46,046 bases of DNA from Squatina squatina (taxonomy: Eukaryota), in assembly GCA_031763465.1 (NCBI GenBank), contig JARFOE010000013.1:3533121-3579166 (forward strand), read 5' to 3'. The notes under the pieces are model-generated. The model had not been told where the DNA came from. It did no database searches and saw nothing but the letters and a program-made list of their open reading frames with translations. Position numbers and translations under genes: made by a program. Positions 13,691 through 45,684 of the stretch are shown one piece after another; positions within the stretch are counted from its first letter, which is position 1, and each line of letters begins with the position of its first letter.

Positions 13691-13808
13691 GCTGAGGAGA
13701 CAGCAGACAGGTTCACTGTTTGGAATAAAGCGAAGCTCAGTGTATAACCCTGATGATTCCGGAGAAGCAATCAGTGAAGAAGACGACCTGGAACTCGAAG
13801 TGAAATAA
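13691..13808 (+). CDS. CCDC102B: Coiled-coil domain-containing 102 family, last coding exon (CCDC102B by synteny)
   Basis: Acceptor ttttccatag, phase 2; (R)LRRQQTGSLFGIKRSSVYNPDDSGEAISEEDDLELEVK*; resembles the CCDC102A-type C-terminus (RLRRQQ..LFG..R...acidic..L.I.V); lies upstream of DOK6 in the same orientation. Confidence 0.8.
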
Positions 13809-27316: not shown

Positions 27317-27382
27317 ATGGCTTCAAATTTTAACGATATAGTGAAGCAGGGATATGTGAAAATCCGCAGCAGAAAGCTGGGG
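27317..27382 (+). CDS. DOK6: Docking protein 6, exon 1 (PH domain start)
   Basis: Kozak ccagccATGG; [22 protein letters not shown] then donor GTGAGT; matches the DOK6 N-terminus. Confidence 0.96.
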
Positions 27383-29384
27383 GTGAGTAGAAATCCAATG
27401 ACAGCGTGAAATGTGCTTGTTAACAGCTGGATAAAACAAAATCTTAATTGGTATCAGGGATAGAGCCCTGCTGGGCGTGCATCTAGACGGGATGGGCTTC
27501 TCGACCAGAACAGTGATGGAAACTGTCACTAAAACTGTATATTAATAAAAATGAACTGTAAGCTTGTGTTCAACACAAAAAACAACTGGTCAAATAGAAC
27601 TTTGCTCTCATCAGTGCGATTTCTCATGTTAGACATAGTGCTAGTGCCTTTCCCACTGATAGTGCGGAGTTTCTGATTCACAGAATTGTGACATGGATGG
27701 TCCTGTCGACTTCTTGTGGTCTAAGATGTTCTTAGGCTCGAGGTGCTGTATTGAAAAACAAAGTTTAAGGGGATGACACTAATTGTACAGGCTTGTTTTT
27801 AACCCATGGAAATTTCACACCAGTTATGCTTTGGTTTGTACCAGCTTGCAGCCAATGTGATAGCTATTTCCACAGAAGGGCAGCTGTGATTCAAACTCCT
27901 TATTTATATATTGCATTAAAAAAAAAAGAACTGGACTATTGACTAATTTTGATCACATTTTGTCACACAACTTTCCTGCTAATGGGTAATGCTTGCATTG
28001 TGCAATCATGTTATATCTGGAATAAACTGGAACTGACAATAAAGTTGCTTCTAACTAAAGGTGCAGGAATTATTTTACTAATTGTGCTGCGCCTAGGATT
28101 TACACTTATGGGTTTTTTTTTTCCAGCATTTTGCCTACATTGGAGGTTGTTCAGTAGAACTAGTTATGTGCTGCCCCACAAAATGTGTCGCATTGAGCTG
28201 CTGTGTGTTATTGGTGCAAAAACCATAAGCAATGTGTTGCAACAGAGTGGCACAGCAGAAGGACTGTTGTATGTGACTGAGAGTGCAGTAGTAGGACAGC
28301 TGGAAGCACTTGTGTGTTGTATTGGAGCATGACAGTAGAGGGGCTATGCTGCATAGATTTTGAGTACAGAGGGACAGTGGCGACAAGAACTTGTAGCACT
28401 AACAGGCACCAAAAGGACTAACCGGCATCAAAAGGTGTTTTATGGGTTGATCAGGGGTTGCAGTTTGAAGAAGCCCTAACCTTTTATTTTTAGAGTCTTT
28501 CCTAGCTCCATCCATATGAAAAGCCAAGTTTGGTCGAGTAGAACGCTGCCTGCACTTTCATACCAGTTACCCCTGCCTTTCACCTCTACAATTGGTGGCA
28601 GGACTGCGGGTTGGTGGTATAACTCCTAACTGGACAGTTCAAAGTTTGACCAGCATAGACCGAGCTCAAATAGCATCATATTCTGAATATTCTTCCTGAT
28701 GGATAATACTGGGAAGTGTGTGTTATCCCAAAAAGGTTCTTTAGCTTGTCCCTATTGTTCTGATAACTGTGGAGCTGCACCTTGATGAATATGTTTCCAA
28801 TCTGTTGGAAAGATTTGTGTGAACTGTGCAATGTTGCTCGACGGAACCTTGTACAGGTTAGTTTGTCTAGCTTATAGCCACTTTGGCTGTGGTTTGCCAT
28901 GCAGGGCAATGACTTGTGACATGTGCAAGACTTCAATTTGCAGGCAATCGCTGAGTGCAAGGGGAAAGTGTTGTTAAAACCAGCTTGCAGTGGTTTGAAG
29001 CATTGTGCTGAAAGGAGAAGATGCAGATCTGGGCACAGGCAGCTGAAATGAGAAGGATGGTGGTGACACATTACTGGCATTTCCTAAGAGTCACATGAGA
29101 AAAAGCTTGCTGTGGAAGCTGGCTTACAAACAGATATTTTTAACTCTTTCTCTCCGACCTTAACCACACACCATCCTGACTGGATACTACTGATTATTAT
29201 TGGTTCAGCAGATACTTTGTGTTGATTGGTTATGTAAATGTCATTCAGGCCTACATACAAGAACGTTTTGTTTAAACCTATTTAGAGGTTTGTGCTTCTG
29301 AAAGTGTTAACACTTTCAGAATACCTGCTACAGACAAACTCTGACCTTCAGCCAGTGTGTTATCAAATACAACTTTTAATTTGT

Positions 29385-29558
29385 TGAGTATATTCAAGGC
29401 TGAGATAGATAGATTTTTGGACTCTAGGGGAATCAAAGGATTATGGGGATTGGGCGGGAAAGTGGAGTTGGTCAAAGATCAGCCATGATCTTATTGAATG
29501 GTGGAGCAGGCTCGAGGGGCTGTGTGGCTTCCTGATCCTAATTCTTATTTTCTTATGT
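29385..29558 (+). mobile_element. CR1 LINE 3' end in DOK6 intron 1
   Basis: TTCAAGGCTGAGATAGATAGATTTTTG...GATCAGCCATGATCTTATTGAATGGTGGAGCAGGCTCGAGGGGC...TTCTTATGT: end of ORF2 (FKAEIDRFL) plus the 3' UTR. Confidence 0.8.
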
Positions 29559-31706
29559 AACTAGAGTTAATAATGTGCATACTAGTTTTAGTTAACACCT
29601 TTCTTTGATTTCCACATTTATAAACAGAATTTCATACAGAGTATTGCNNNNNNNNNNNNNNNNNNNNNNNNNNNNNNNNNNNNNNNNNNNNNNNNNNNNN
29701 NNNNNNNNNNNNNNNNNNNNNNNNNNNNNNNNNNNNNNNNNNNNNNNGTCCTCGATGAATTGTTCACCCTTTTTGGTGTGAAAATGCCAAGATCTGGGAG
29801 GGGGAGAATCGGCTACGGTTGCAGCTTCTGATTGCTGCATGCTGACTGCTGTCTGAAGTACATACATGTCGTTGAGTGAGCGTAGGCTTGGCTGCGGTGC
29901 CCCCACGCGGTCCAGCAGCTTGCCACCACTCAATGAATAGTTGCTTGGACAGGGCACTGCATGGTGCTGGCTCCCATACCCCAGCAAATACCTTTTGGGA
30001 GGGGAAGGAAGGAAATTGGCAGAAAAAGGAGGAACAATAAAGAAATGCAATCTTGTTATTGTAACAACGGCCTGACAATCTTTGCTTTATTGCTTTGACT
30101 TAATTGCAAAATTGCTTACAACTTTAAATTTAACAAATTAAATGTCACACATGGCTTATTGCAATGGTCCCTGCCCATCTGTCTGTCTGTTCTTCTGTAT
30201 GTAGCTGAGACTGCCCGAATAGCTAAATTCTAGTAAACTGTTGGGTTAAATTTTTTTAATTATACATGCACGTTTTATATATAATTTCCAGTTTGCAATA
30301 GTCATAATTGAATGTGCTGACATTACTTTTTATTCTGCGTAAGTCAAGACAAATTCAAGGACAAAACCCTAGCACATTGTTAGCTTAGCAGCTGGGAATT
30401 TATGACATTTGCTTAGCAACACAGACTGTCCTGATACGGCAATATCCTCTTAGCAACTCCTTACCACATCACTGACTTCAGAACGTACTGACCTCTCTGT
30501 AAGCTGGAGCTCTGCCAGCTTGTCGGTGTGGTACTAAGATACCACAACAGCCTGAAAGAGTTAAAGGTGGGCAGTTGCTAATAGGGTTGTATTGGGAAGT
30601 GCTCCTGTTAATCACAGATCTCCAATTTCTGAGGATCATCATCCAACCCAGGTGGATCACAGAACTTATAACTTGCACCACTTGTAGAAGTAATGACTAA
30701 GGCAATGTATGAGCAATATGGCAGTGTCTCNNNNNNNNNNNNNNNNNNNNNNNNNNNNNNNNNNNNNNNNNNNNNNNNNNNNNNNNNNNNNNNNNNNNNN
30801 NNNNNNNNNNNNNNNNNNNNNNNNNNNNNNGTATGAAATTGAAAAAAACTGCGTATGTTGCTTGCAACAGGCACAACATGGTCCTCTTTGGAACTTGGAG
30901 AGAAAAAAATGGCCAGCTGCAGAGAGGTGGTACAACGGGTGTCCAACAAGGCTCCCAGTAGCATCTCTGTATCTCTCCTCCATGCATCCATTCGAGGGAA
31001 ACAAATTGTTCTTTTATAATGGGTACAATTAAGAATTTGTCAGTGGAAATACTTTTCCTTTAGAGGAGTTGTTTCAGCAGCTCATTAAACTCCAGTAGCC
31101 TGCTTGGCACGATGGACTATTTCTCAATCGCTGACACTAATTGCTCCAAAGGCTTTCTTTGAAGAACAGTGACGTGCAGAAAGCTGGAAGTGGTGGCAGG
31201 TCCCTGTAGACGTGGGGCTCGCAATGTATCCGTGATTCCACCTGAGAAGTAACAGGAGCTGGAGGCGAGCAGTCTGCACGTAGCTATGAAAAGTGACCTT
31301 GGAACCTCAGTGCAAACTGTCTACCTGCAATTCCACACTTTTCGAGTGTGACCTGCGTACCATAAAATGTTTCCAAACGCTTGTCCCTCATGTACATTTA
31401 ACAGGGTGTACTTATCCAAAACGTCCGAGATAGATAGATTTCTAATCAGNNNNNNNNNNNNNNNNNNNNNNNNNNNNNNNNNNNNNNNNNNNNNNNNNNN
31501 NNNNNNNNNNNNNNNNNNNNNNNNNNNNNNNNNNNNNNNNNNNNNNNNNGATGAAGCTCAGTCACTTACCAGCCCACCTCAGCCGTTAAAGGCAATGTTT
31601 GAAATCAGTGAACCCACTGCTCAGTTCAATCTTGTCTGCAGCAGCTCATAGGGGAGGTATTCTGGTAAACTTGTGGAAAACTTGGAGATCCGTTTGGGGT
31701 GCAGCC

Positions 31707-33370
31707 ATGGCAGTGGGTGGACAAGGGGCCAGAGCCTCAAGATTCTCCGATGCGGAGGTGGAGACTCTAGTTTCATCTATTGAGAGGAGGGCCACACAAC
31801 TTTTTGCTAAGAGGGGCCAAAGGGGAAGTACACAAATACTGAGGACCTTATGGAGGCAAATAATTGGGGAGGTCTTTGCCTCAGACACGGTTGAGTGCAC
31901 AGGACATCAGTGTCGCAAAAAGTTCAATGACCTAAGTCGTGCAATAAAGTAAGTGTGCTTTGTTGTTGAATGTACAAATGTGCAAGTGTGATTGGGGAGT
32001 CTATCTCAGCATCATGTAACTTTTATCTCTTCGAAATACATGCATCATTAATTGTAGCATTTCCACAAATGGCACAGCTTCTTGGGCATGACATGTAGTG
32101 GCTATGTCAATGGAAAGAATGTAGCTTACTACAGTTCTCTTATTTTATGCAGTTGAAGCTAGCGAGGAACAGACGTGAGCAGCAACATACAGGTGGAGGG
32201 GAGGTTGCCGAGATACCAATATCTGCCATCGAGCAGGACATCGCCAGGATACTGGCTGGAGACGTCAGGCATCCTGTGGTAAGTGGTGGTGTACTACTTC
32301 CTGCTGCAGTTGATGGTAAGTGAATGTGTGCTTGTGTTGCATTGCTGCTGGATACCCTTTCGCCTTGCAATGCAGTTCATTGTAATGGTGGAAGCAAGCC
32401 ATGCCCCATGGCTGGTCCCATCCACCCTCACCCTCATGTATGTGGTCTTCCCTTCATCTTCTCAGATGATCCGTCATCCCCAAAGGTGGAAGTGCCTGCA
32501 GTGGAAGGGACGCAGTCACAGGAAGCATCAGGGAATGATGAGGAGGATCGAGAAACAATGGACCTGGAGCAAGATGTGGAACCTGATGGGGGGGTGGGGG
32601 GGTAGGGTGGTGGAAAAGGAGGGAGAGGAGAGGGAACCTATAGCCGGGGCTGGGCCGAGCACTGCGTCACACATTCCACCACCATCAGTTACTTCCACGT
32701 CACGTAGTGTAGAGGTTAGGTCCTGCCATGGAACAGCACTAGGTGAAGCACAGGGTCCCAGCAGGGTGCGATGCCAAGAAAAGCTGGTGGGTCAGCAGTC
32801 CGGAGGGTCAGTTGGCCAATTAGCCCTGCTTCCGATGGCTCAAATAAGGAACTGGGCAGGGTGTCCGTCAATGAAAGGATCTTCCAGGTGTATGAGCAGA
32901 TGACAGCTTCAATGGCAAGGGTGCCTGAGAGTCTTGTAGAAGTGGTAAGGAGCATGGAGGAGTCTGCATCCCGCATTATGCAGAGCTCCACGCAGACCTT
33001 GCAGTCTCTCATTGACAGCATGCATTCAATGTTAGACTCAGAGAGCAATCATGAGGATCCAGCCATCATGAGGCATCTTATGGGTGATGTGGTATCCTTC
33101 ATTGCGGCACAAGCCAAGGCAATGCAACGGCTTGTTGCTGCAGTGGAAGCACTGGTAGCTGGCACACATGCTGAGGCTGCTCTCAGACAGGTTCAGCATG
33201 AGGTGCTGCAAGGGGTTGCTAATGCTATGCAGGAAGTGTTAGCTGGCATACACGATGAGGCTGCTCTCAAGCAGTTTCAGCTGGAGGCCACACAAGCACT
33301 GACTGCTGCCATCGCCACTGGGTCCACCATGGGACACCGGGGGCCCAACAATGGCACACCACCAGTCTGA
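31707..33370 (+). pseudogene. Harbinger-derived Myb/SANT gene B (three exons: 31707-31948, 32153-32315, 32466-~33370) in DOK6 intron 1
   Basis: Kozak gcagccATGG; exon 1 MAVGGQGARASRFSDAEVETLV...LW..I..EV...TGHQCRKKFNDLSRAI; exon 2 LKLARNRREQQHTGGGEVAEIPISAIEQDIARIL; exon 3 acidic linker then a coiled coil; canonical GT-AG sites. Exon 1 ends one base short of phase 0 and exon 3 has two frameshifts. Confidence 0.85.
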
Positions 33371-35008
33371 GGTCCCTCTGACTGGCGGGGATACTGATGA
33401 GCTGCCCCGGGGGAGTGTCATTAACTCATGTGACCAGGAGCCTGCTGCGCTGTCTTAGTATGGCAGCACTCCTGATCGTGGCAGTGGCACTCCATCATTG
33501 ACACTGCTCATGCCTGGGACCAATGAACACTAGAATGCCGAACCAAACCCTGAGGTTCCACAATCTGAAGCCTGCCCTTCCAGGGTCAGAGCTCACTGAG
33601 GGCGTCCCAAACGGCCATCTGTAGCTACCAGTCCATATTCATAGCAACCTGGCCCTAGCCATGCTGCATCCACACAAACCCACTGAGGAGAAGTGATAGG
33701 ATAGCAGGAAAGAAAAGAGGATGTAAGGTTTTTCACAAGGGAGGTGATTGATTTATCCATTAGTTTGACTGACATGTTGTTATTAAATGTATTTTTCATT
33801 CTCCTTCATTTCGTTCATTGCATAATTAATTTCATTCAGAACCCTTTTTATATTTACATATTTTTACTGGGAGGAAAACTGCTAATCAAACATTATACTG
33901 GCAAATTAATAAAGCAAAATTACTGCTGAACGTGCTGGTAGCAACAGTTAATTTAGAAGGCTGAAGAGTGTGTTAGATTTGTGTTTTCATTTAATAACAC
34001 TGAATCCCAAGGGTTGGCATCGCTAGCTTGTCTGCAAGGCTGTGGTCCCATAAGCCTGCTGAGTGCCAAAATGTATTCCGGTTACCCCATGACTGTAATA
34101 CAGAAATATCTAGGAAGGTGTTGGAGATAAAAAGGTGTGCTTGCTGCCAAACTCTGGGTGAAAGGAAAATGTTACTTTTGAAAGGGTAAAATGTAAATTA
34201 TAGCAATAGGAATAGATGAAAGGTTTAGATTTGGTGCCCTAGATATTGGATCGTGCCTAAATCAGGGCATGATAAGAAACATAAGAGCATAAGAACTAGG
34301 AGCAAGAGAAGGCCATTCGGCCCCTTAAACCTGCTTGCCATTCAACNNNNNNNNNNNNNNNNNNNNNNNNNNNNNNNNNNNNNNNNNNNNNNNNNNNNNN
34401 NNNNNNNNNNNNNNNNNNNNNNNNNNNNNNNNNNNNNNNNNNNNNNTAAAATCTGAACCATGCAGCCTCCTTAGCATAGTTAAATCGCTGACCCGCCTCT
34501 CAAGAGCAGGTTACTCGCCTGCACCTCCAAGACCGCCCTGGTTAGAACGGAAGTAGGCAGGTTGCGGTTGGGATTCAGATTTTTAAGAATTTAACCCCTG
34601 CCCCTCCCTTGCCCATCCAGTAGGGTTAAAATAACGCCCTCCCTGTCCAGTCTGACACACGTGGAATGATTAATTGGACAAGGTGCTGTAAGGCCGCAGA
34701 TGGCACCTGTTGAACAATATTCCAGCACAGGTTATCACCTTCAGGAGCGAAGGGGAGAAAATTATGCAGGGCATGGGGGATATCAAATGTTGTGGTTATT
34801 GCAATGTGAAGTTTAAAAAGTGCTTTGGTCTAAGCCAGACTCGTGATGTTAGATTTAACAATAATAAATGTACAGTTGCCTGTGGGTTTTATTGTTATTT
34901 TACATCCCACACTGGGCAATATTACCTTCATTAACATTATGTTCTGATTCTAATGTCATAACAATACACTAATCAGGCTTGTTTGCATTCTTTTGACTTT
35001 TCTAACAG

Positions 35009-35116
35009 ATGTATAGACGGTGTTGGTTGGTATTTAAGAAGGCCTCCAGCAAAGGCCCGCGAAGGTTAGAGAAATTTCCTGATGAAAAGGCGGCCTATTT
35101 CCGGAACTTTCACAAG
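35009..35116 (+). CDS. DOK6: Docking protein 6, exon 2
   Basis: Acceptor tttctaacag; [36 protein letters not shown]; donor GTAGGT; phase 0-0. Confidence 0.96.
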
Positions 35117-36098
35117 GTAGGTATTCTTGGCTTTCTACTGAATCTTATAAGATGGAAAGTATTAACAGTAAATGCAATCCAGCTACTTGGCACAACATAT
35201 CCTCAGCTATCATTTCTGTGGAGTTGGGTGGGGGGGGAAGGGGGAGCGGGGAAGGGGTCTTGTTGGGATTAAGGTCACTTCGGCTATGAGGCTGGAATGA
35301 TTGATTTTTGCTTTGGGTGCTCGTGCTTCTAACACCACAATAAATTGATTTTTCCTTACATAATTTAAACTGATACATGNNNNNNNNNNNNNNNNNNNNN
35401 NNNNNNNNNNNNNNNNNNNNNNNNNNNNNNNNNNNNNNNNNNNNNNNNNNNNNNNNNNNNNNNNNNNNNNNNNNNNNNNCGACTTACTATTAGCAACAAA
35501 TGGAAAATCCTCTCGTATGTTTGAAGATTGTGTGACTCATGTGTCCAAATAATATACTCATCGTTGTCTCAGTGAGCTGATTTATTGCCAGTTTTTACTG
35601 AGGCCTAAATGTAGGCTAAGCTGATGTTGTTGCTTGCCAAAGAATGTAAGAGCCATAGCTGATCACTGTGCCTCTAATGTATTGATGGTTGTGTGATCCC
35701 AGTATTGAATGTGATTTGATTGTTATACTAAACACATCGTGATAGAGCGAAAATCAACCTGAATTATATGAAAAATTGCCAACTTTAATTTTGACCTTTT
35801 CTGTAATTAAAATGGTCTTCAAACTTGAACAGGTTAATTTGTTAATATGAGTCAGACGTCTGTTTTGTTGACAAATTCTGGTTGATATCGATCTCGGGTA
35901 AAAAGATACACAGACATTATCTAAAGTAATCCAAACAGGCTTCAGGACTCGCCAATCAAATGGTGTGTGAACTAAAATCTAAATACCTCAAGCTGCAGAT
36001 GTCTTTCATTGCTAATCCTTCCAGTTAACATGGACATTGGTGCTCTGAACAGCGGCAGGGTGTGATGATCTTATGTGTTGCCCTGTGTTTGTTCACAG

Positions 36099-36191
36099 AG
36101 CTGGAGGCAGAGGAATGGTGTAAGCTTCTTTCCGTCGAATGCTTAGGATCCAGACTCAATGACATCAGCTTTGGGGAACCAGACCTACTAG
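36099..36191 (+). CDS. DOK6: Docking protein 6, exon 4 (3' end lost in a gap)
   Basis: Acceptor gttcacag, phase 1; (E)[30 protein letters not shown]. Confidence 0.93.
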
Positions 36192-36499
36192 NNNNNNNNN
36201 NNNNNNNNNNNNNNNNNNNNNNNNNNNNNNNNNNNNNNNNNNNNNNNNNNNNNNNNNNNNNNNNNNNNNNNNNNNNNNNNNNNNNNNNNNNTGTAGCCTT
36301 TCACCACCAGTGCTGAAGTGCAAAAACAGGGCATCAAGAGGTGACAGGCATCAAATTGCTACAGATCTGCAACATTCAAAATTAAGTATTAATTCAGTAG
36401 ACTATACTTCCCTTTACTTGACTTCAGTTCAGTGGCACCTGAGTTTTCTGAAAGTGCAAATATACAAACTATGACAACTGTTGCATTTGTCATTTACAG

Positions 36500-36638
36500 A
36501 ATGTGTGATACAGGAGAGGGACTCTTTACATTTCAGACACGGGAAGGAGAGAGCATCTACCAGAAGGTGCATTCAGCAACTTTGGCCATAGCTGAACAGC
36601 ACGAGCAGCTAATGCTGGAGATGGAGAAAAAAACACGG
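36500..36638 (+). CDS. DOK6: Docking protein 6, exon 6 (end of the PTB domain)
   Basis: Acceptor catttacag, phase 2; (R)[46 protein letters not shown]; donor GTATGT. Confidence 0.96.
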
Positions 36639-37569
36639 GTATGTACCATCTCGACTTTTGCACCATTTAGGTAAAAAAGATTCAATGTGTCTAGGATGCT
36701 TTCTGTTGTAGGGTCCAGTACAGCAATTTGGCAGGAGCTTTTCCAAATTCCTTTGGCGGGAAAAGGACAGGACAATGCCTCAAGCAGCTCCAGCTCTCCA
36801 AAACAATGGGGGAGGGAGGCGGTGAAATCAACTCTTGACAGATTGATGCCTAGAAGTTGGCCTCCCCAGAAAACTCCTCGTTGAACATGGAAGTCCAAGC
36901 CTACCAATATCATTGTGGAAACTACCTTTCATTGACCCTTGGGAAAGGTCAACGGAGATCCAAATTAACTTGATGCTGACAGCTGGGAAGTAGGACTACA
37001 TAGCCTCTGATTATGTCAACACTCTCCCCACTCTGCCACAATAGGGAGCTTCCAGGAGTGCTTACAAATAAAAGATTTTGAACCATGCATGAGAAAGCAT
37101 CCTTCATATTAAACTATCTGCTAACATTACAAACCATTCAAGGACTGACTGACACATTGTTACAGTATACAGTATGACCTGTTCTGCTACCTCAGATTAG
37201 GCATTATCCCCAGAACCCGATAATACCCTGCAAGTTCTGTAAAAACATTAGCCAAAGTTCCCACTTTGGATTGCCATACAGGATTGGTCCTACTTGTTTG
37301 ATAGCCTTCCTGTCAAAGTGCACATATGAAAAATGACCACTTGGACAAGTACTCGAGGGCTACTAATGTCAATGGAACCTTACCAGAGAAGAGTTCCATA
37401 ATNNNNNNNNNNNNNNNNNNNNNNNNNNNNNNNNNNNNNNNNNNNNNNNNNNNNNNNNNNNNNNNNNNNNNNNNNNNNNNNNNNNNNNNNNNNNNNNNNN
37501 NNAAAAGAGGAATGAAATCCTCATGAAAGCAGTATCAATTCTTGTAACATATTTTTTCCCCCCTGACAG

Positions 37570-37709
37570 GAGATGATTTAAACTTGACAAAGGTTCCTCG
37601 GGCACAGACCTTCCCAAGCTACATCTCAGAACAGAGTCACGAGCACCAGCACTTATTATCGCCGTCTAGTGGCTACGGATCAAGCTACAGCTCTGGGCTG
37701 GCCCAGTGA
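37570..37709 (+). CDS. DOK6: Docking protein 6, last coding exon
   Basis: Acceptor ttttttccccctgacag, phase 1; (G)DDLNLTKVPRAQTFPSYISEQSHEHQHLLSPSSGYGSSYSSGLAQ*; RAQTFPSY..EQS and SYSS.L.Q* are DOK6-type. Confidence 0.92.
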
Positions 37710-38029
37710 TGTGCATCGAACAATGGGGAGAGTCACTGTGAGCCGGGCCACACTTGTACTGAGAGAATCCTGATGATCTAACAGTGAGGGGGTGAGGACT
37801 AAATACAGGTGAAACAAAACAAGACTCGAGTGGCTTTTACTGTACTTGAAGCATTCAGGTGATAAACTGAATATTCATAGGCTTAAAAAGAATTTTTTTT
37901 AACATTAAATCCTGAGCAAAGGACGTGACAAAAGTGCGCAGGAAAATCATAAGGAGCACAGCCATCAACAGACTAGTACATGCTTATAAAAATAGTAAAC
38001 TACACAAGGTAAAACCAGAGGAAGACATT

Positions 38030-38700
38030 TAGACAATTGGTCAGCACCCAAACGGGGGTCTGCGGGGGCACCGCGCCGGCAGCAAAGGTTGCTGACCCGG
38101 AATTGGGCACTTTGTCACAATTCCGGGTCAGCGCAACGTGGCAACGCTAAAAAAGCCCGGCAAATGCAGCGGCCTTAGTGGGGTGGGTCACAGGCTGATT
38201 CAATGATTCAATGGAGGCCAATCCAGCAATGCTGGACCACCAGGGAGCCAGGTCCGGGCGGTGAAAAATGCTAGCACGCTAGAGAGCATGTTGGTAAATG
38301 CGGCCAGCGGCGATGGTGGCCAATCAGCCGCCATTCATCAGCCGACGATGAAGTCGGCCAATGTAAAAAAAAATGGCGGCCAGTGGTGCTGTCACAGCAC
38401 CTTTAACCCACCTTGTACAATGCCTGGGACTCGCTGGTGAGCCGCCCTTCAATTCTGGAGGTGGCTCGCCAGCAATGCAGAGGGGTTTGCAGGCTGGCAT
38501 AGAGGGATTGGCACGTGATTTGATGATGTCGCAAGCCTTACCCCAGCGCCAACGGCATCCCCGGCAACGGGGCCTTAGCGCCACGAGGGCGCCAGGCCTA
38601 ATTACTCAAATTGAAAATTTTTAAATTTGTGCTGCTTTAGCGCCCGGGTGGTGCCACTGTTCGGCGCAACCATGGGTCTAAAACAGACCAATTGGGACCC
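38030..38700. mobile_element. GC-rich non-autonomous DNA element just 3' of the DOK6 stop
   Basis: GC/CpG-rich block bounded by CAATTGGTC (~38034) and GACCAATTGGGACCC (ends 38700); related ends at ~3173-3188 and ~8599-8614. Confidence 0.5.
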
Positions 38701-41465
38701 CTTTGTCTTCTTAGACAGATTTGTGTGCACCTTTTGAAGTGGCTTAGTGAGTTGTAGTGAATGGCCAGACATAAGAGTACCCCACACAGTGGTGATGAGT
38801 GTGAAAGGAATGGCTTGGTCATTGTAGGGATGCTTTATGGTGCTGGTGTGGGGTGGTGCCAACCTGACACATAATGTGTCAGCCAGGGCGTACAGCATCA
38901 AGCAAAGTAAATCTGGCAATGAAGAGGTCATCACTGGCNNNNNNNNNNNNNNNNNNNNNNNNNNNNNNNNNNNNNNNNNNNNNNNNNNNNNNNNNNNNNN
39001 NNNNNNNNNNNNNNNNNNNNNNNNNNNNNNNNNNNNNNACACAGATAATACTTGAAAATATCTCAGTGGGGATTACTGATCAAGAGATTCAACAAAAATG
39101 GATTATAGGCCCTCGGTTACAGAATTATTTTGTAGGGTAAAACAATGGTCAAACTCACCGTTGACCATGTGTTGCAGAAGTGACACCGACTGCAGAGTAA
39201 ACTGTTAAACAGTAAAAGTCGGGCTGCTGAAACAGCAATTATGCCAATGATTACAAATTAATAAAATAATTTTGCAGGTGACCTGAAATACAGTCGGCCA
39301 GACATTACTCACCATAAGTCCAAAGGTAGACTAGCTCTGGATTCCTGCAGTCTACATGGTTGTCACCTTTAGGTTTGATTCACAAGAAAAGTAAGTTGGA
39401 TTTACTCTCAATCACAGCAGAGATGAAGCAACCCAGTGCTCTTATAGAAGTGACTTCTACCTGAAATCCCATTCACGAGATCTCAAGAGTTCTTTATCTG
39501 ACAATATAAGCTCGCATCTTCCTCCAGAATTGAGGTAAAGATGAAATACACTGGGTGCTGGGTGGTGTTTGTCGGCGCTTGTGTGGCTTTGTACTTACAA
39601 AGGGTCTTGTTTCATTGTCTGCAGTGCACAAATGAGTAGTAATAAACAGGTGGCAGGCTCAGGCAGAAACCAACAGTTAGATGGTCACGTCTCTTTTGTG
39701 AGGCATTTCTTCCAGAGATATGCAAAGTGATCTTTCCCACTCTGTCTTAGAAGGTTAATAAAGTCCCACGCGTTTAACATGCAATTATAACAAATGCTTG
39801 TTTCACTGTGATGTACATAATTAATTAAAGAGAGGAGACGGAGATTGGTACTACCTATAGCTACGTTTTTTTTCCATAGTGTGCTGTTTTTGACATAAAT
39901 TTGTATTATGTTTATAATTGTATTTGTGGAACTTTTCTAACTATATTGCTAACTTGCTTTTCCACCTCCCCCTTTTATCATGGTTTCCACCTCCTAGTTG
40001 TTCAGTCAAGTTATTTCCCTCCATATTTCCTGCACCGTGACTCTCGTTTACTGTGCGTACATTTCCTTTTTCTAATGGTTATTTGCTCTCCCTATACTCA
40101 AAACCTTGTATACTGTAAATCTCAATAGGTCTTGAGAAACTCTAGGGTGCTGATGGAATCAGTTGCCTATTTAGGCTTTAGGCTCCTGTTTAATAACACC
40201 GCAGGTATTTCAAATGTTGTAAGTCATGCACTTTGTGCACTGGGCTGGCAACTAATTTCAATCATAGTTCACTCACTTCCATTCTGTTAACACCAGCTTC
40301 AGCCTGTATGCGCTGTTTCTATCAATCTTCAAAAAATGCGAATGCATGGCGTCAGGAATTCACTGACTTCAGTGAAATCCCAAAGTCTATAGTCTCCTAG
40401 ATTTGTTGATGAGGTCCACTGTTTAAACTACAAGCATATAGCACAGAGATTGTTTAATCACTTGCATTGTCTCAGTTTATTTGAATGTTGACAATTTCAC
40501 TGTTGTGGGAAATTATATTTACATGCTATTCATAATTGTTACGTTGTTGAATTTTGGAAAATCATGTGCATTGCATTTTGGAAAAATGAGTCATTTGCTT
40601 GTGAATTCTGTATTGGGCCCATGTTTACACTTAAACGCCTACTGAGGTTAGTACAATCAATAAAGTAACAACCGCATTCCTGATTGCATCTAGTGCTACA
40701 AAAACTATGGTAAAAATGTGAAAACCACCTTGCAAAATGTGTAGATCGAGTATTGTTGTAACTCAACCAGCAGCCAATGGGTTTTTGTGGTAGCAAAGCT
40801 TCACGAGTAGGTTATTCCAGGAATTGAGTACTGTCTAGAAAATCCCTAAGATGTTACCAATGTTATGATGGATGTGAAAATATCAGTTCGCACTCTGAAA
40901 CTGCTTAGGTGAGTATCATAACTAGCGGTTAGTATTCTATGAAAACAGCAGAGTTAAATAACACTCATCTCCAGATCCATTTTTAGTTTTTTTTTTGTTG
41001 TTTGTCTCATGCACTTAATGAAAGAAACAATCTGATGAAAATGAGATACTGATTTCTAACCAAATTCATCAGACTGGCCTATGTATCTGTATCCAAAGGA
41101 AATCTGTACCTTAGTCATCATTGTCTACTGTCCTCTATTTGTCTCATGCTTCACAATGTGTTTCAGAGTATGGTTTTCAGTCGATGTTATTTTTATCTTG
41201 TAATTTATGGTTCTGTGCGACTGCTCATAGAAATAAATTANNNNNNNNNNTATCAAACTGTGGGCTTTGATGTGTGTTTTTTTTTAATTCACACACAATG
41301 ATATTTATTGCATTTTATATAATTAATTACATAAAAGCAGGTTGATTACTGTATGTGCAGATGGTTCACAATGTTCTTTTAACACATCAATTAGATTGCT
41401 TATAGAGCATCTCTGCTGTGCTCCAAGGTCCCTTCTTTAACACCCTCCTCGGTCATTTACATAAT

Positions 41466-41683
41466 GGGCCTGAAATTGCGATCTCCCTGGGTGGGAACGA
41501 TGTTCCCACGCACCTGGAGAAACATCGCAAAAGCGGGTTCNNNNNNNNNNCTCCGAATCTCCAGCTTGGGGGGGCTGAAGATCGCAAACTCCCGTGGATC
41601 CAGGACCCTTAGGTAAGTACGTAGTTTTTTTTGTGATTGGAAGCATCCGCACGCGGGAAGCTTCCAATCGCAATTTCAGGCCC
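41466..41683. mobile_element. Harbinger-type MITE
   Basis: Perfect 17-bp TIRs GGGCCTGAAATTGCGAT / ATCGCAATTTCAGGCCC with a 3-bp direct repeat AAT on both sides; a 10-N gap inside. Confidence 0.85.
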
Positions 41684-41739
41684 AATACTTCATAATCATG
41701 CATGAACGTATGTGTTTCTGTTTTTTTTCTCTCTTCCAG

Positions 41740-41909
41740 CTTATTATCTCCCAAAGGATAATAATGACTTCTACCAATTCTGCTATGTCACTCATAAGGG
41801 GGAGATTCGTGGAGCCAGCACACCTTTTGGGTTCAGACTGGCTAATTCCAGCATGTCTGACCACATGGACAGCGATTCCAGTCAGGAGATGCTCATTATC
41901 ACCACACAA
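41740..41909 (+). CDS. Internal exon of a SKICH-domain protein (TAX1BP1/CALCOCO family)
   Basis: Strong acceptor ttttttttctctcttccag, donor GTGAGT, phase 1 to 0, 170 nt, no stops; (A)YYLPKDNNDFYQFCYVTHKGEIRGASTPFGFRLANSSMSDHMDSDSSQEMLIITTQ; FYQFCYVTHKGEIRGASTPF matches TAX1BP1 as recalled. Confidence 0.9.
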
Positions 41910-42084
41910 GTGAGTCTCTTTTATTATAGCGCACACACATATATTTTCTCAGTAATCTAGTTTTCAAAGCTCAGCACACTTGAACAAGGTCAATCTGAGG
42001 GAATCTCCACTTGATACAAAGGATTTAATTCCTTAAGGGGTAAAATCACCACATTATTGGTTACATTTAGGTAGATATTATTGG

Positions 42085-42380
42085 TCCAACCATACAACCC
42101 TCCCAGGTCTCTGCGCTCCTCCAATTCTGGCCTTTTGCGCATCCCTGATTTTTATCACTCCACCATTGGCGGCCGTGCCTTCAGCTGCCTGGGCCCCGAG
42201 CTCCGGAATTCTCTACCTCCCTTTCCTCCTTAAAACCAAGCTCTTTGACCAAGCATTTGGTCACTAGCCCTAATATCTCCTTCTCTAGCACTGTATCAAT
42301 TTTTGTTTGATTTATGTTCCTGAGAAGTGCTGAGGGATGTTTTACTACATTAAAACGCTATATAAATGCAGGTTATTGTT
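42085..42380 (+). mobile_element. L2 LINE 3' end
   Basis: PYNPPRSLRSSNSGLL...STIGGRAFSCLGPELRNSLP (L2 ORF2 C-terminus) followed by the tail ...CGCTATATAAATGCAGGTTATTGTT. Confidence 0.82.
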
Positions 42381-43527
42381 ATACTGTCGAGCCTGCTGCT
42401 GCGTTTTCAGATTTCTGCTTATGTGCCGGGAATTGATCACTCTGCTGATTTAGCTCTGACCTGCTGGTACCTATCCTGCTCTGGATTTCATTCCATTGCT
42501 GCCGAATGCACTTTGCTTGCTGTCTTTCTGCCAGTCCTTAGGGATTTATTGTGTTCCTTTCAGTTCATTTTCCCCTTCATGCTTTATCTTGGAGCTCCCT
42601 CTTCTGGTAGTCCACGCTAAAGTCCTCCTGCACTGTTTCTGGCACTGTCTATTTAATGCCTGACTACTCAGTTGGTAATGTAATAATTAGTTGGCTGTAA
42701 AGCGTTTTGGGATGTCCGGAGATCGTGAATGGCGCTACACAAATGCAAGCTCTTGCTTTCCCTGTACGCACAGGGGAAAAAAGGATGCTTGCACACGCTC
42801 CCAATTGTGGTCATTAACATCGTTAAATCCCATTCACCCATCACCCCAGGTGACCAAACACTTGCTCAAAGAGGTAGGTTTTAAGCCAAGTCCTAAAGGA
42901 GAAGGAGAGGCCAAGAGTTTTGGGTGGGAATTTCTGAAATCAATATTGAACTCTAACACGTCAGTCTGGGACTCAAGGTTGGGAAGAACTGGGCTATTAA
43001 GGACCTGAGGATTCTGTAGAGCCCCCTTGGTGAAAGCAAGTCAGAGAAAGTAAACGGATTGGTGTTAGGGGTCTTTAAAAATAACAGACTCCAGACAGGT
43101 CACTTGAAAGCAAAGGTAAGCTTTATTTCCTGATATCAGNNNNNNNNNNNNNNNNNNNNNNNNNNNNNNNNNNNNNNNNNNNNNNNNNNNNNNNNNNNNN
43201 NNNNNNNNNNNNNNNNNNNNNNNNNNNNNNNNNNNNNNNAACTGTATGCACCCTCTCATCTCAGGGATCAATTTAGTCCCAGGAGCTAGCAGAAGAATGG
43301 TTTGCAAGAAACCAGAGAACCAAAGGAGATCAGGATTGATCGAGGTGCTCAGCAGCGATGAGGAGAATGATCCAGAACACACTGGTGGAGGAGGTGAAGA
43401 ATGTGAATGCCTCGTCATATCAAGTTAATTTAAAATAAGTTTGAAAGCAATTTGGTTATCCACCATACATTCATGAACCAGTAAAATAGGATAACCAGGT
43501 CAAAGGGTAAAATTTAAAATTGCTAAC

Positions 43528-43795
43528 CGTTAGCTAGAACCTTTGGCTTGTTCGCAGGATTGAAGCAAATATTGTGAAGAACAAGAAGGGCAGTGGGCTG
43601 GTTGCTTCTATGCTTGTGGTGGGACATTGCTGTCAATAGCTCCAAACTTCCATTCATCTTCACAATCATCTGCTGTCCCTCATCTCCAAAAGACATATTC
43701 AGCAATAGCTTCAGCCAAAGCATGGCCAAAATGCTTAGGGGTTTTCCTGCTGCCTTTGGTAATGGCAGCGCAAGGAAGTGCTGCAAGAAATTGCT
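43528..43795 (-). CDS. RTTN: Rotatin, late exon (armadillo-like region)
   Basis: Acceptor tttactgtag, donor GTTAG; [89 protein letters not shown]; [15 protein letters not shown] and HN.CF.PANKPK.LAN are rotatin motifs. Confidence 0.93.
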
Positions 43796-45578: not shown

Positions 45579-45684
45579 CCTGCAAGGCATGCTTCTGTGC
45601 ATAAACGCTTATAGGAAGCAATGCTGTGAGAGCACCCACTGCAACTTTCCTCTGAGTATCTTCAAATGATTTACCTTCATAGCT
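45579..45684 (-). CDS. RTTN: Rotatin, earlier exon
   Basis: Acceptor tttttttttctgtag, donor GTAAGT; SYEGKSFEDTQRKVAVGALTALLPISVYAQKHALQ resembles rotatin YEGKS..D..K.VA..AL..LL.VS..AQKHAL. Confidence 0.88.

Follow-up and report, generated by a model that had tools for sequence, protein, structure and literature searches.

A coding exon of a selective-autophagy receptor stands between DOK6 and RTTN in a 46,046-nucleotide stretch of the Squatina squatina genome (the window). It has to be asked to which gene this exon belongs and whether the gene really resides there. The original prediction, made from this stretch, described an exon of an NDP52/TAX1BP1-type receptor and took it for an additional or relocated member of the family. 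The analysis indicates a real exon of a gene that is already known, likely in the wrong place.

Exon 41740-41909 and its domains

The exon and its elements are as follows; the splice signals were assigned by sequence.

41715..41739, plus strand: polypyrimidine tract and AG acceptor (CAG) of the SKICH exon
41740..41909, plus strand: coding exon of CALCOCO2/NDP52, 170 nt, corresponding to approximately residues 94-150 of the 622-aa Pristiophorus orthologue (SKICH end, linker and CLIR)
41742..41834, plus strand: C-terminal part of SKICH, profile positions 72-103 of 103 (Pfam PF17751)
41886..41900, plus strand: EMLII motif, predicted to bind ATG8; it aligns with the DMLVV CLIR of TAX1BP1
41910..41915, plus strand: GTGAGT donor of the SKICH exon

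The SKICH exon is real and intact, and its match is far beyond chance. Its entry phase is 1 and its exit phase 0; it is bounded by AG and GT and keeps 56 open codons from YYLPKD to EMLIITTQ, which confirms the stop-free 170-nt exon with strong splice sites that had been predicted. The exon peptide scored 31.5 bits with the Pfam SKICH profile PF17751 over a cut-off of 23.4, in agreement with its description as the second half of a SKICH domain ending in EMLIITTQ. The best PDB sequence match is the SKICH domain of TAX1BP1 (E 1.4e-17), and solved NDP52 SKICH chains align too. The LVV-type CLIR of CALCOCO2/NDP52 is seen at the level of the motif, LII being aligned to LVV. The SKICH profile and the CLIR alignment together bear out the assignment to a receptor of the NDP52/TAX1BP1 type. 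The role of the CLIR in ATG8 binding is described in PMC10945755.

A motif census found EMLII, EMLVI or ELLII in 56 proteins of the cartilaginous-fish group described below. The exon is present in one copy in the genome, both by protein search and by DNA search. Of the 21 exon differences listed, 13 fall on third codon positions; outside the linker the figure is 8 of 10.

Gene identity and synteny in cartilaginous fishes

The protein search with the exon peptide returned 1,301 matches, and the figures given here rest on the best 120 of them. The best 34 are all cartilaginous-fish proteins (two of them Logan rows) with 70-96% identity, and the best match among those listed is the 622-aa protein of the sawshark Pristiophorus, 96% identical over the exon. 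Proteins of this group are mostly 600-740 aa long, typically ~630 aa, and their database names are inconsistent: CALCOCO2, CALCOCO2-like, TAX1BP1-like or uncharacterised. In these species TAX1BP1 is a distinct protein of ~840 aa with 59-62% identity, and the first TAX1BP1 rows among the matches listed are at 62%. The cartilaginous-fish rows among these 120 matches fall into only two groups of SKICH receptors.

In a tree of the exon only (26 rows), the window row joins 13 group proteins, nearest to Pristiophorus and with an end branch of 0, and the 12 TAX1BP1 rows are separated from them by a 100/100 branch. A SKICH phylogeny had been proposed as a check on the original prediction; this tree, which includes no tetrapod or teleost NDP52, CALCOCO1 or outgroup, sets the group apart from TAX1BP1 but does not name it. 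As bony-vertebrate NDP52 is not among its rows, orthology to CALCOCO2/NDP52 rests on synteny.

TAX1BP1 itself was tried as the identity of the exon and rejected on the 57-62% identity over the exon, the 100/100 branch and the separate TAX1BP1 exons elsewhere in the genome. These are four exon matches on contig C192, 115 kb from a Hox13 gene taken to be HoxA13; the view that TAX1BP1 is a separate gene beside a Hox cluster is thus upheld in this genome. Three Hox13 loci were found (on C100, C235 and C192), and HoxC13 was not among them in that search. Other SKICH matches in the genome, on C120 and C88972, are distant (31-39% to the receptors) and presumably represent the SKICH domains of inositol phosphatases.

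Synteny was compared through recorded contig sizes, sizes identical to the base being taken as the same chromosome. The group gene and HoxB13 are on one contig in 13 of the 15 species for which both genes are listed, including sharks, rays and a chimaera. The two misses are Hypanus and Cetorhinus, where the group gene is on scaffolds shorter than 1.5 Mb. With DOK6, a contig is shared in none of the seven species with an unambiguous contig; in Heterodontus the group gene is on a 60.4-Mb contig, whereas DOK6 is on a 209.0-Mb contig. The rows pooling Stegostoma and Rhincodon, two Chiloscyllium, and Hypanus were excluded from the DOK6 count, as was Mobula birostris, whose SKICH gene is not listed and which was excluded from the HoxB13 count as well.

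Accession numbers of the group adjoin those of HoxB13 in Callorhinchus (XP_007902549 versus 550/551) and in Chiloscyllium punctatum (XP_072417375/6 versus 373/4), and in Scyliorhinus torazame the group accession is within ten of that of HoxB13; such order is a hint of neighbourhood and no proof. A table in PMC9448734 places sheep CALCOCO2 ~90 kb from HOXB13, with TTLL6 in between. From its HoxB13 linkage, the group is the CALCOCO2/NDP52 orthologue by synteny.

These data leave little of the idea of an additional or undescribed family member: the exon belongs to a HoxB13-linked orthologue that is already annotated in RefSeq and UniRef in ~20 cartilaginous fishes, often as CALCOCO2-like. The original prediction had set its reading against one in which the exon maps beside a Hox cluster, and in other species the orthologue does share a contig with HoxB13; flanking by DOK6 was not seen in any of the seven species compared. 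In a literature search judged from titles and abstract openings, no paper on shark CALCOCO2 was found. The accession table of PMC4599966 contains zero cartilaginous fish, and its other supplements or those of PMC10945755 may show fish alignments.

Several annotations of the group deserve a record. Several species have annotated CALCOCO2 isoforms that are shorter, differ at the C-terminus and lack zinc fingers. A doubled NPY motif directly before the zinc fingers is common to shark CALCOCO2 and TAX1BP1 (alignment columns ~540-570). Extra partial CALCOCO2 copies are annotated away from HoxB in two rays: one of 332 aa in Narcine, on a 494-Mb chromosome that also bears the Narcine TAX1BP1, and one of 229 aa in Hypanus, on a 238-kb scaffold; stray copies of the gene therefore do arise.

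Position of the exon in the assembly

The genome assembly consists of 1,152,659 contigs. The window holds 33 N gaps. Across the 166 kb around it, gap-free pieces have a median length of 1.1 kb, and the gaps mostly measure exactly 100 N. It is probably a short-read assembly ordered against the genome of a relative. The features that bear on the position of the exon are listed below.

37572..37709, plus strand: last DOK6 coding exon, 93% to Heterodontus DOK6
41466..41683: high-copy MITE with terminal inverted repeats, AAT on both flanks and ~130 bp of its interior missing
41541..41550: gap of 10 N within the MITE, where a putative wrong join would most likely lie
41551..43139: gap-free contig bearing the exon, ~1.6 kb, repeat-rich from ~42080 and followed by a 100-N gap
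43528..43795, minus strand: armadillo-like exon with approximate ends, taken for one of the 3' exons of RTTN
~45579-45684, minus strand: second armadillo-like exon, likewise taken for 3' RTTN; open frame

As assembled, the order is DOK6 (plus strand), the SKICH exon (plus strand) and the two armadillo-like exons (minus strand), which are presumably RTTN. The predicted placement between DOK6 and RTTN therefore holds for the scaffold as it stands, but it is likely a misplacement; the order of the three rests on N-gap joins.

DOK6 (27317-37709, plus strand) is represented by five exons matching shark DOK6, and parts of the protein are without an exon in the scaffold. One DOK6 exon near 36100-36190 is interrupted by a gap. 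A GC-richer segment (~50%) with long open-looking runs at ~32150-33700 (plus strand), in DOK6 intron 1, is probably decayed and transposon-derived. Upstream, at 13692-13808 (plus strand), a terminal coding exon with an acidic tail and a stop is likely, by assumption, that of CCDC102B. The segment 39039-41465 is AT-rich with patches conserved in relatives and has five AATAAA on the plus strand, of which the one furthest downstream, at 41232, precedes a GT-rich run; the segment is possibly the DOK6 3' UTR, and motif counts there are uninformative.

The RTTN label is supported by an RTTN_N match 22.6 kb beyond the window end, on the same strand as the armadillo-like exons. RTTN_N lies only ~25 kb past these exons, which marks the scaffold as a compressed selection of contigs. 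In the assembly, an early exon of RTTN is left unplaced. Frames of at least 35 residues between DOK6 and the SKICH exon contained no recognizable end exon of RTTN. The human gene order is taken to be DOK6-CD226-RTTN; a CD226-like exon was not noticed in the translated frames of 37710-43527, where the gaps make this no evidence of loss.

Further exons of CALCOCO2 exist in this genome; the original prediction had named the want of other exons or transcripts, as in an orphan duplicated fragment, as its risk. Five were found on five unplaced contigs of 0.8-2.2 kb, with 52-84% identity to the 622-aa Pristiophorus protein. The next two exons have phase 0 and AG/GT ends; the final one encodes the terminal zinc finger and contains the stop. 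The orthologues carry PF18112, and exons matching their coiled coil and zinc fingers are among these unplaced contigs; orthology and phase suggest their linkage to the SKICH exon. The earlier SKICH exons were not found genome-wide with the N-terminal 94 residues of the Pristiophorus orthologue or with a degenerate motif, which is no evidence in an assembly that is incomplete and partly N. In this assembly of 1.15 million contigs the SKICH exon is on C13, HoxB13 on C235, and the other exons are unplaced. No other CALCOCO2 exon was found in the 166 kb around the window (27% N), and none in 200 kb beside HoxB13 on C235 (54% N). Exons of another HoxB neighbour, recognized by a Pfam match and taken to be SNF8, are likewise unplaced, and the absence of CALCOCO2 beside HoxB13 therefore means little.

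The best explanation, with a probability of roughly 0.86, is that the contig of an intact CALCOCO2/NDP52 exon was set between DOK6 and RTTN by an assembly join. A short-read scaffolder would have joined this contig to DOK6-RTTN DNA across the high-copy MITE or a neighbouring gap, and the chimeric unit would then have been ordered against the relative's genome. Joins through high-copy repeats are a common site of scaffolding error. The linkage to HoxB13 in 13 of 15 species, the sharing of a contig with DOK6 in 0 of 7 and the gap inside a MITE with thousands of candidate copies speak for misplacement, as does the partial chain of the scaffold, with DOK6 lacking several exons and an RTTN exon unplaced.

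A DNA search of the genome with the MITE gave 4,778 candidates, of which 40 were scored. One complete copy is ~340 bp, so the 10-N gap hides ~130 bp. Against a misjoin at the MITE stands the AAT on both sides, as expected for one true insertion; it is a weak point, AAT also following 14 of 29 other copies in a sample skewed towards the query. A distance of 340 bp is in principle within the reach of read pairs, so that this join may be right and the error may sit at another gap or nowhere. No read or contig spanning or contradicting the MITE join was found in the 6 of 17 sequencing runs of relatives that were examined; orthologous contigs cover the exon in five of the six, and none is readable beyond the MITE. 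In the sequencing-run search, no RNA run was listed and no run shared more than 0.12 of words. In the intron after the exon, at 42229-42885, two copies of a high-copy repeat lie in opposite orientation, with 36-nt arms that are 86% complementary.

It is improbable that the whole CALCOCO2 gene truly moved in this lineage from the side of HoxB13 to the DOK6-RTTN block, its other exons being unplaced because the ordering reference does not have them there. The scaffold order itself, the matching AAT of the MITE, the linking of 39039-43139 by 10-N gaps only and the finding of no CALCOCO2 exon beside HoxB13 in this genome agree with such a move. The HoxB13 linkage of sharks, rays and a chimaera makes a lineage-specific relocation, as originally considered, unlikely; besides, the SNF8-read neighbour exons are unplaced too, and the join passes through a high-copy repeat. 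Under a true move, the gene would now encode its ancestral-type NDP52, with two zinc fingers and a CLIR that is TAX1BP1-like and of GABARAP type, from between DOK6 and RTTN and away from HoxB13; such a location is correspondingly doubtful.

A recent segmental duplication, by which a lone copy of the exon and its flanks came to lie near DOK6, with the true gene still at HoxB and the assembly collapsing the two copies or losing one, would fit the partial copies of Narcine (332 aa) and Hypanus (229 aa) and the want of a neighbouring exon within 166 kb. It has a small chance of being right, given the single copy by protein and DNA search, the undamaged exon and its end branch of 0; moreover, a dead copy here would imply that the functional one is absent even though later exons are present. 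A fourth CALCOCO paralogue, kept by cartilaginous fishes in the DOK6-RTTN block as a TAX1BP1/NDP52 mosaic, to which the intermediate residues and the inconsistent database names might point, is already largely refuted and hardly credible, since all close relatives are in the HoxB13-linked group, DOK6 shares its contig in 0 of 7 species and the cartilaginous-fish proteins among the best 120 of 1,301 matches make up only two SKICH-receptor groups.

Predicted function and meaning of the shark receptor

With the exon assigned to CALCOCO2 and its position likely an assembly error, the gene can be compared with known systems. The annotated cartilaginous-fish CALCOCO2 group resembles it in 70-96% identity, the same exon ends and EML[IV]ITTQ, and differs only in scaffold position (the HoxB chromosome versus DOK6-RTTN). 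Human NDP52/CALCOCO2 has, like the shark protein, SKICH, an LVV-type CLIR, a coiled coil, a zinc finger and YYLPKD, and it shares the HoxB13 neighbourhood as far as the sheep table of PMC9448734 shows. Unlike the human protein, that of sharks carries Met ahead of the LII core, and its SKICH core is closer to that of TAX1BP1. Shark CALCOCO2 has two zinc fingers; human NDP52 has one and chicken two, according to PMC4599966.

TAX1BP1 shares with shark CALCOCO2 the SKICH core FYQFCYVTHKGEIRGASTP, an acidic residue and Met before the CLIR core, and tandem zinc fingers, and is distinguished by its length of ~840 aa with PF07888, against ~630 aa without PF07888. Over SKICH, the shark protein scores 163 bits with human TAX1BP1 and 123 bits with human NDP52, a difference that counts against the NDP52 assignment. 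The mosaic of residues noted at the outset is as described, but it is common to the whole cartilaginous-fish group, chimaera included. It is likely that the TAX1BP1-like core is ancestral sequence kept in slowly evolving sharks and not the result of recombination between paralogues. According to PMC4599966, the three CALCOCO paralogues arose early in vertebrates and TAX1BP1 is nearest to the ancestral layout.

By analogy, the product of shark CALCOCO2 is predicted to be an ordinary selective-autophagy receptor. From knowledge of the family, SKICH would recruit RB1CC1/FIP200 and NAP1-TBK1, EMLII would bind ATG8 proteins, the coiled coil would dimerise and the C-terminal zinc fingers would bind ubiquitin and myosin VI. 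Binding of ubiquitin and myosin VI by the zinc fingers is reported in PMC4599966. As stated in PMC10945755, Met140 of TAX1BP1 occupies the first hydrophobic pocket of GABARAP, and this mode differs from that of human NDP52 with LC3C. Human NDP52 is LC3C-selective, whereas the ATG8 preference of shark CALCOCO2 is a prediction only: retention of the ancestral state would suggest TAX1BP1-like ATG8 binding.

As a caution, gene order in this assembly is not trustworthy across N gaps. If the move were true, CALCOCO2 would have left a neighbourhood kept from chimaeras to sheep, a rare break of Hox-flank synteny mainly of interest to comparative genomicists. For the family, shark NDP52 has Met at the position of TAX1BP1 Met140, an acidic linker and two zinc fingers, and judged by these features it may keep the ancestral binding mode. 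The LC3C selectivity of human NDP52 may then be a later gain.
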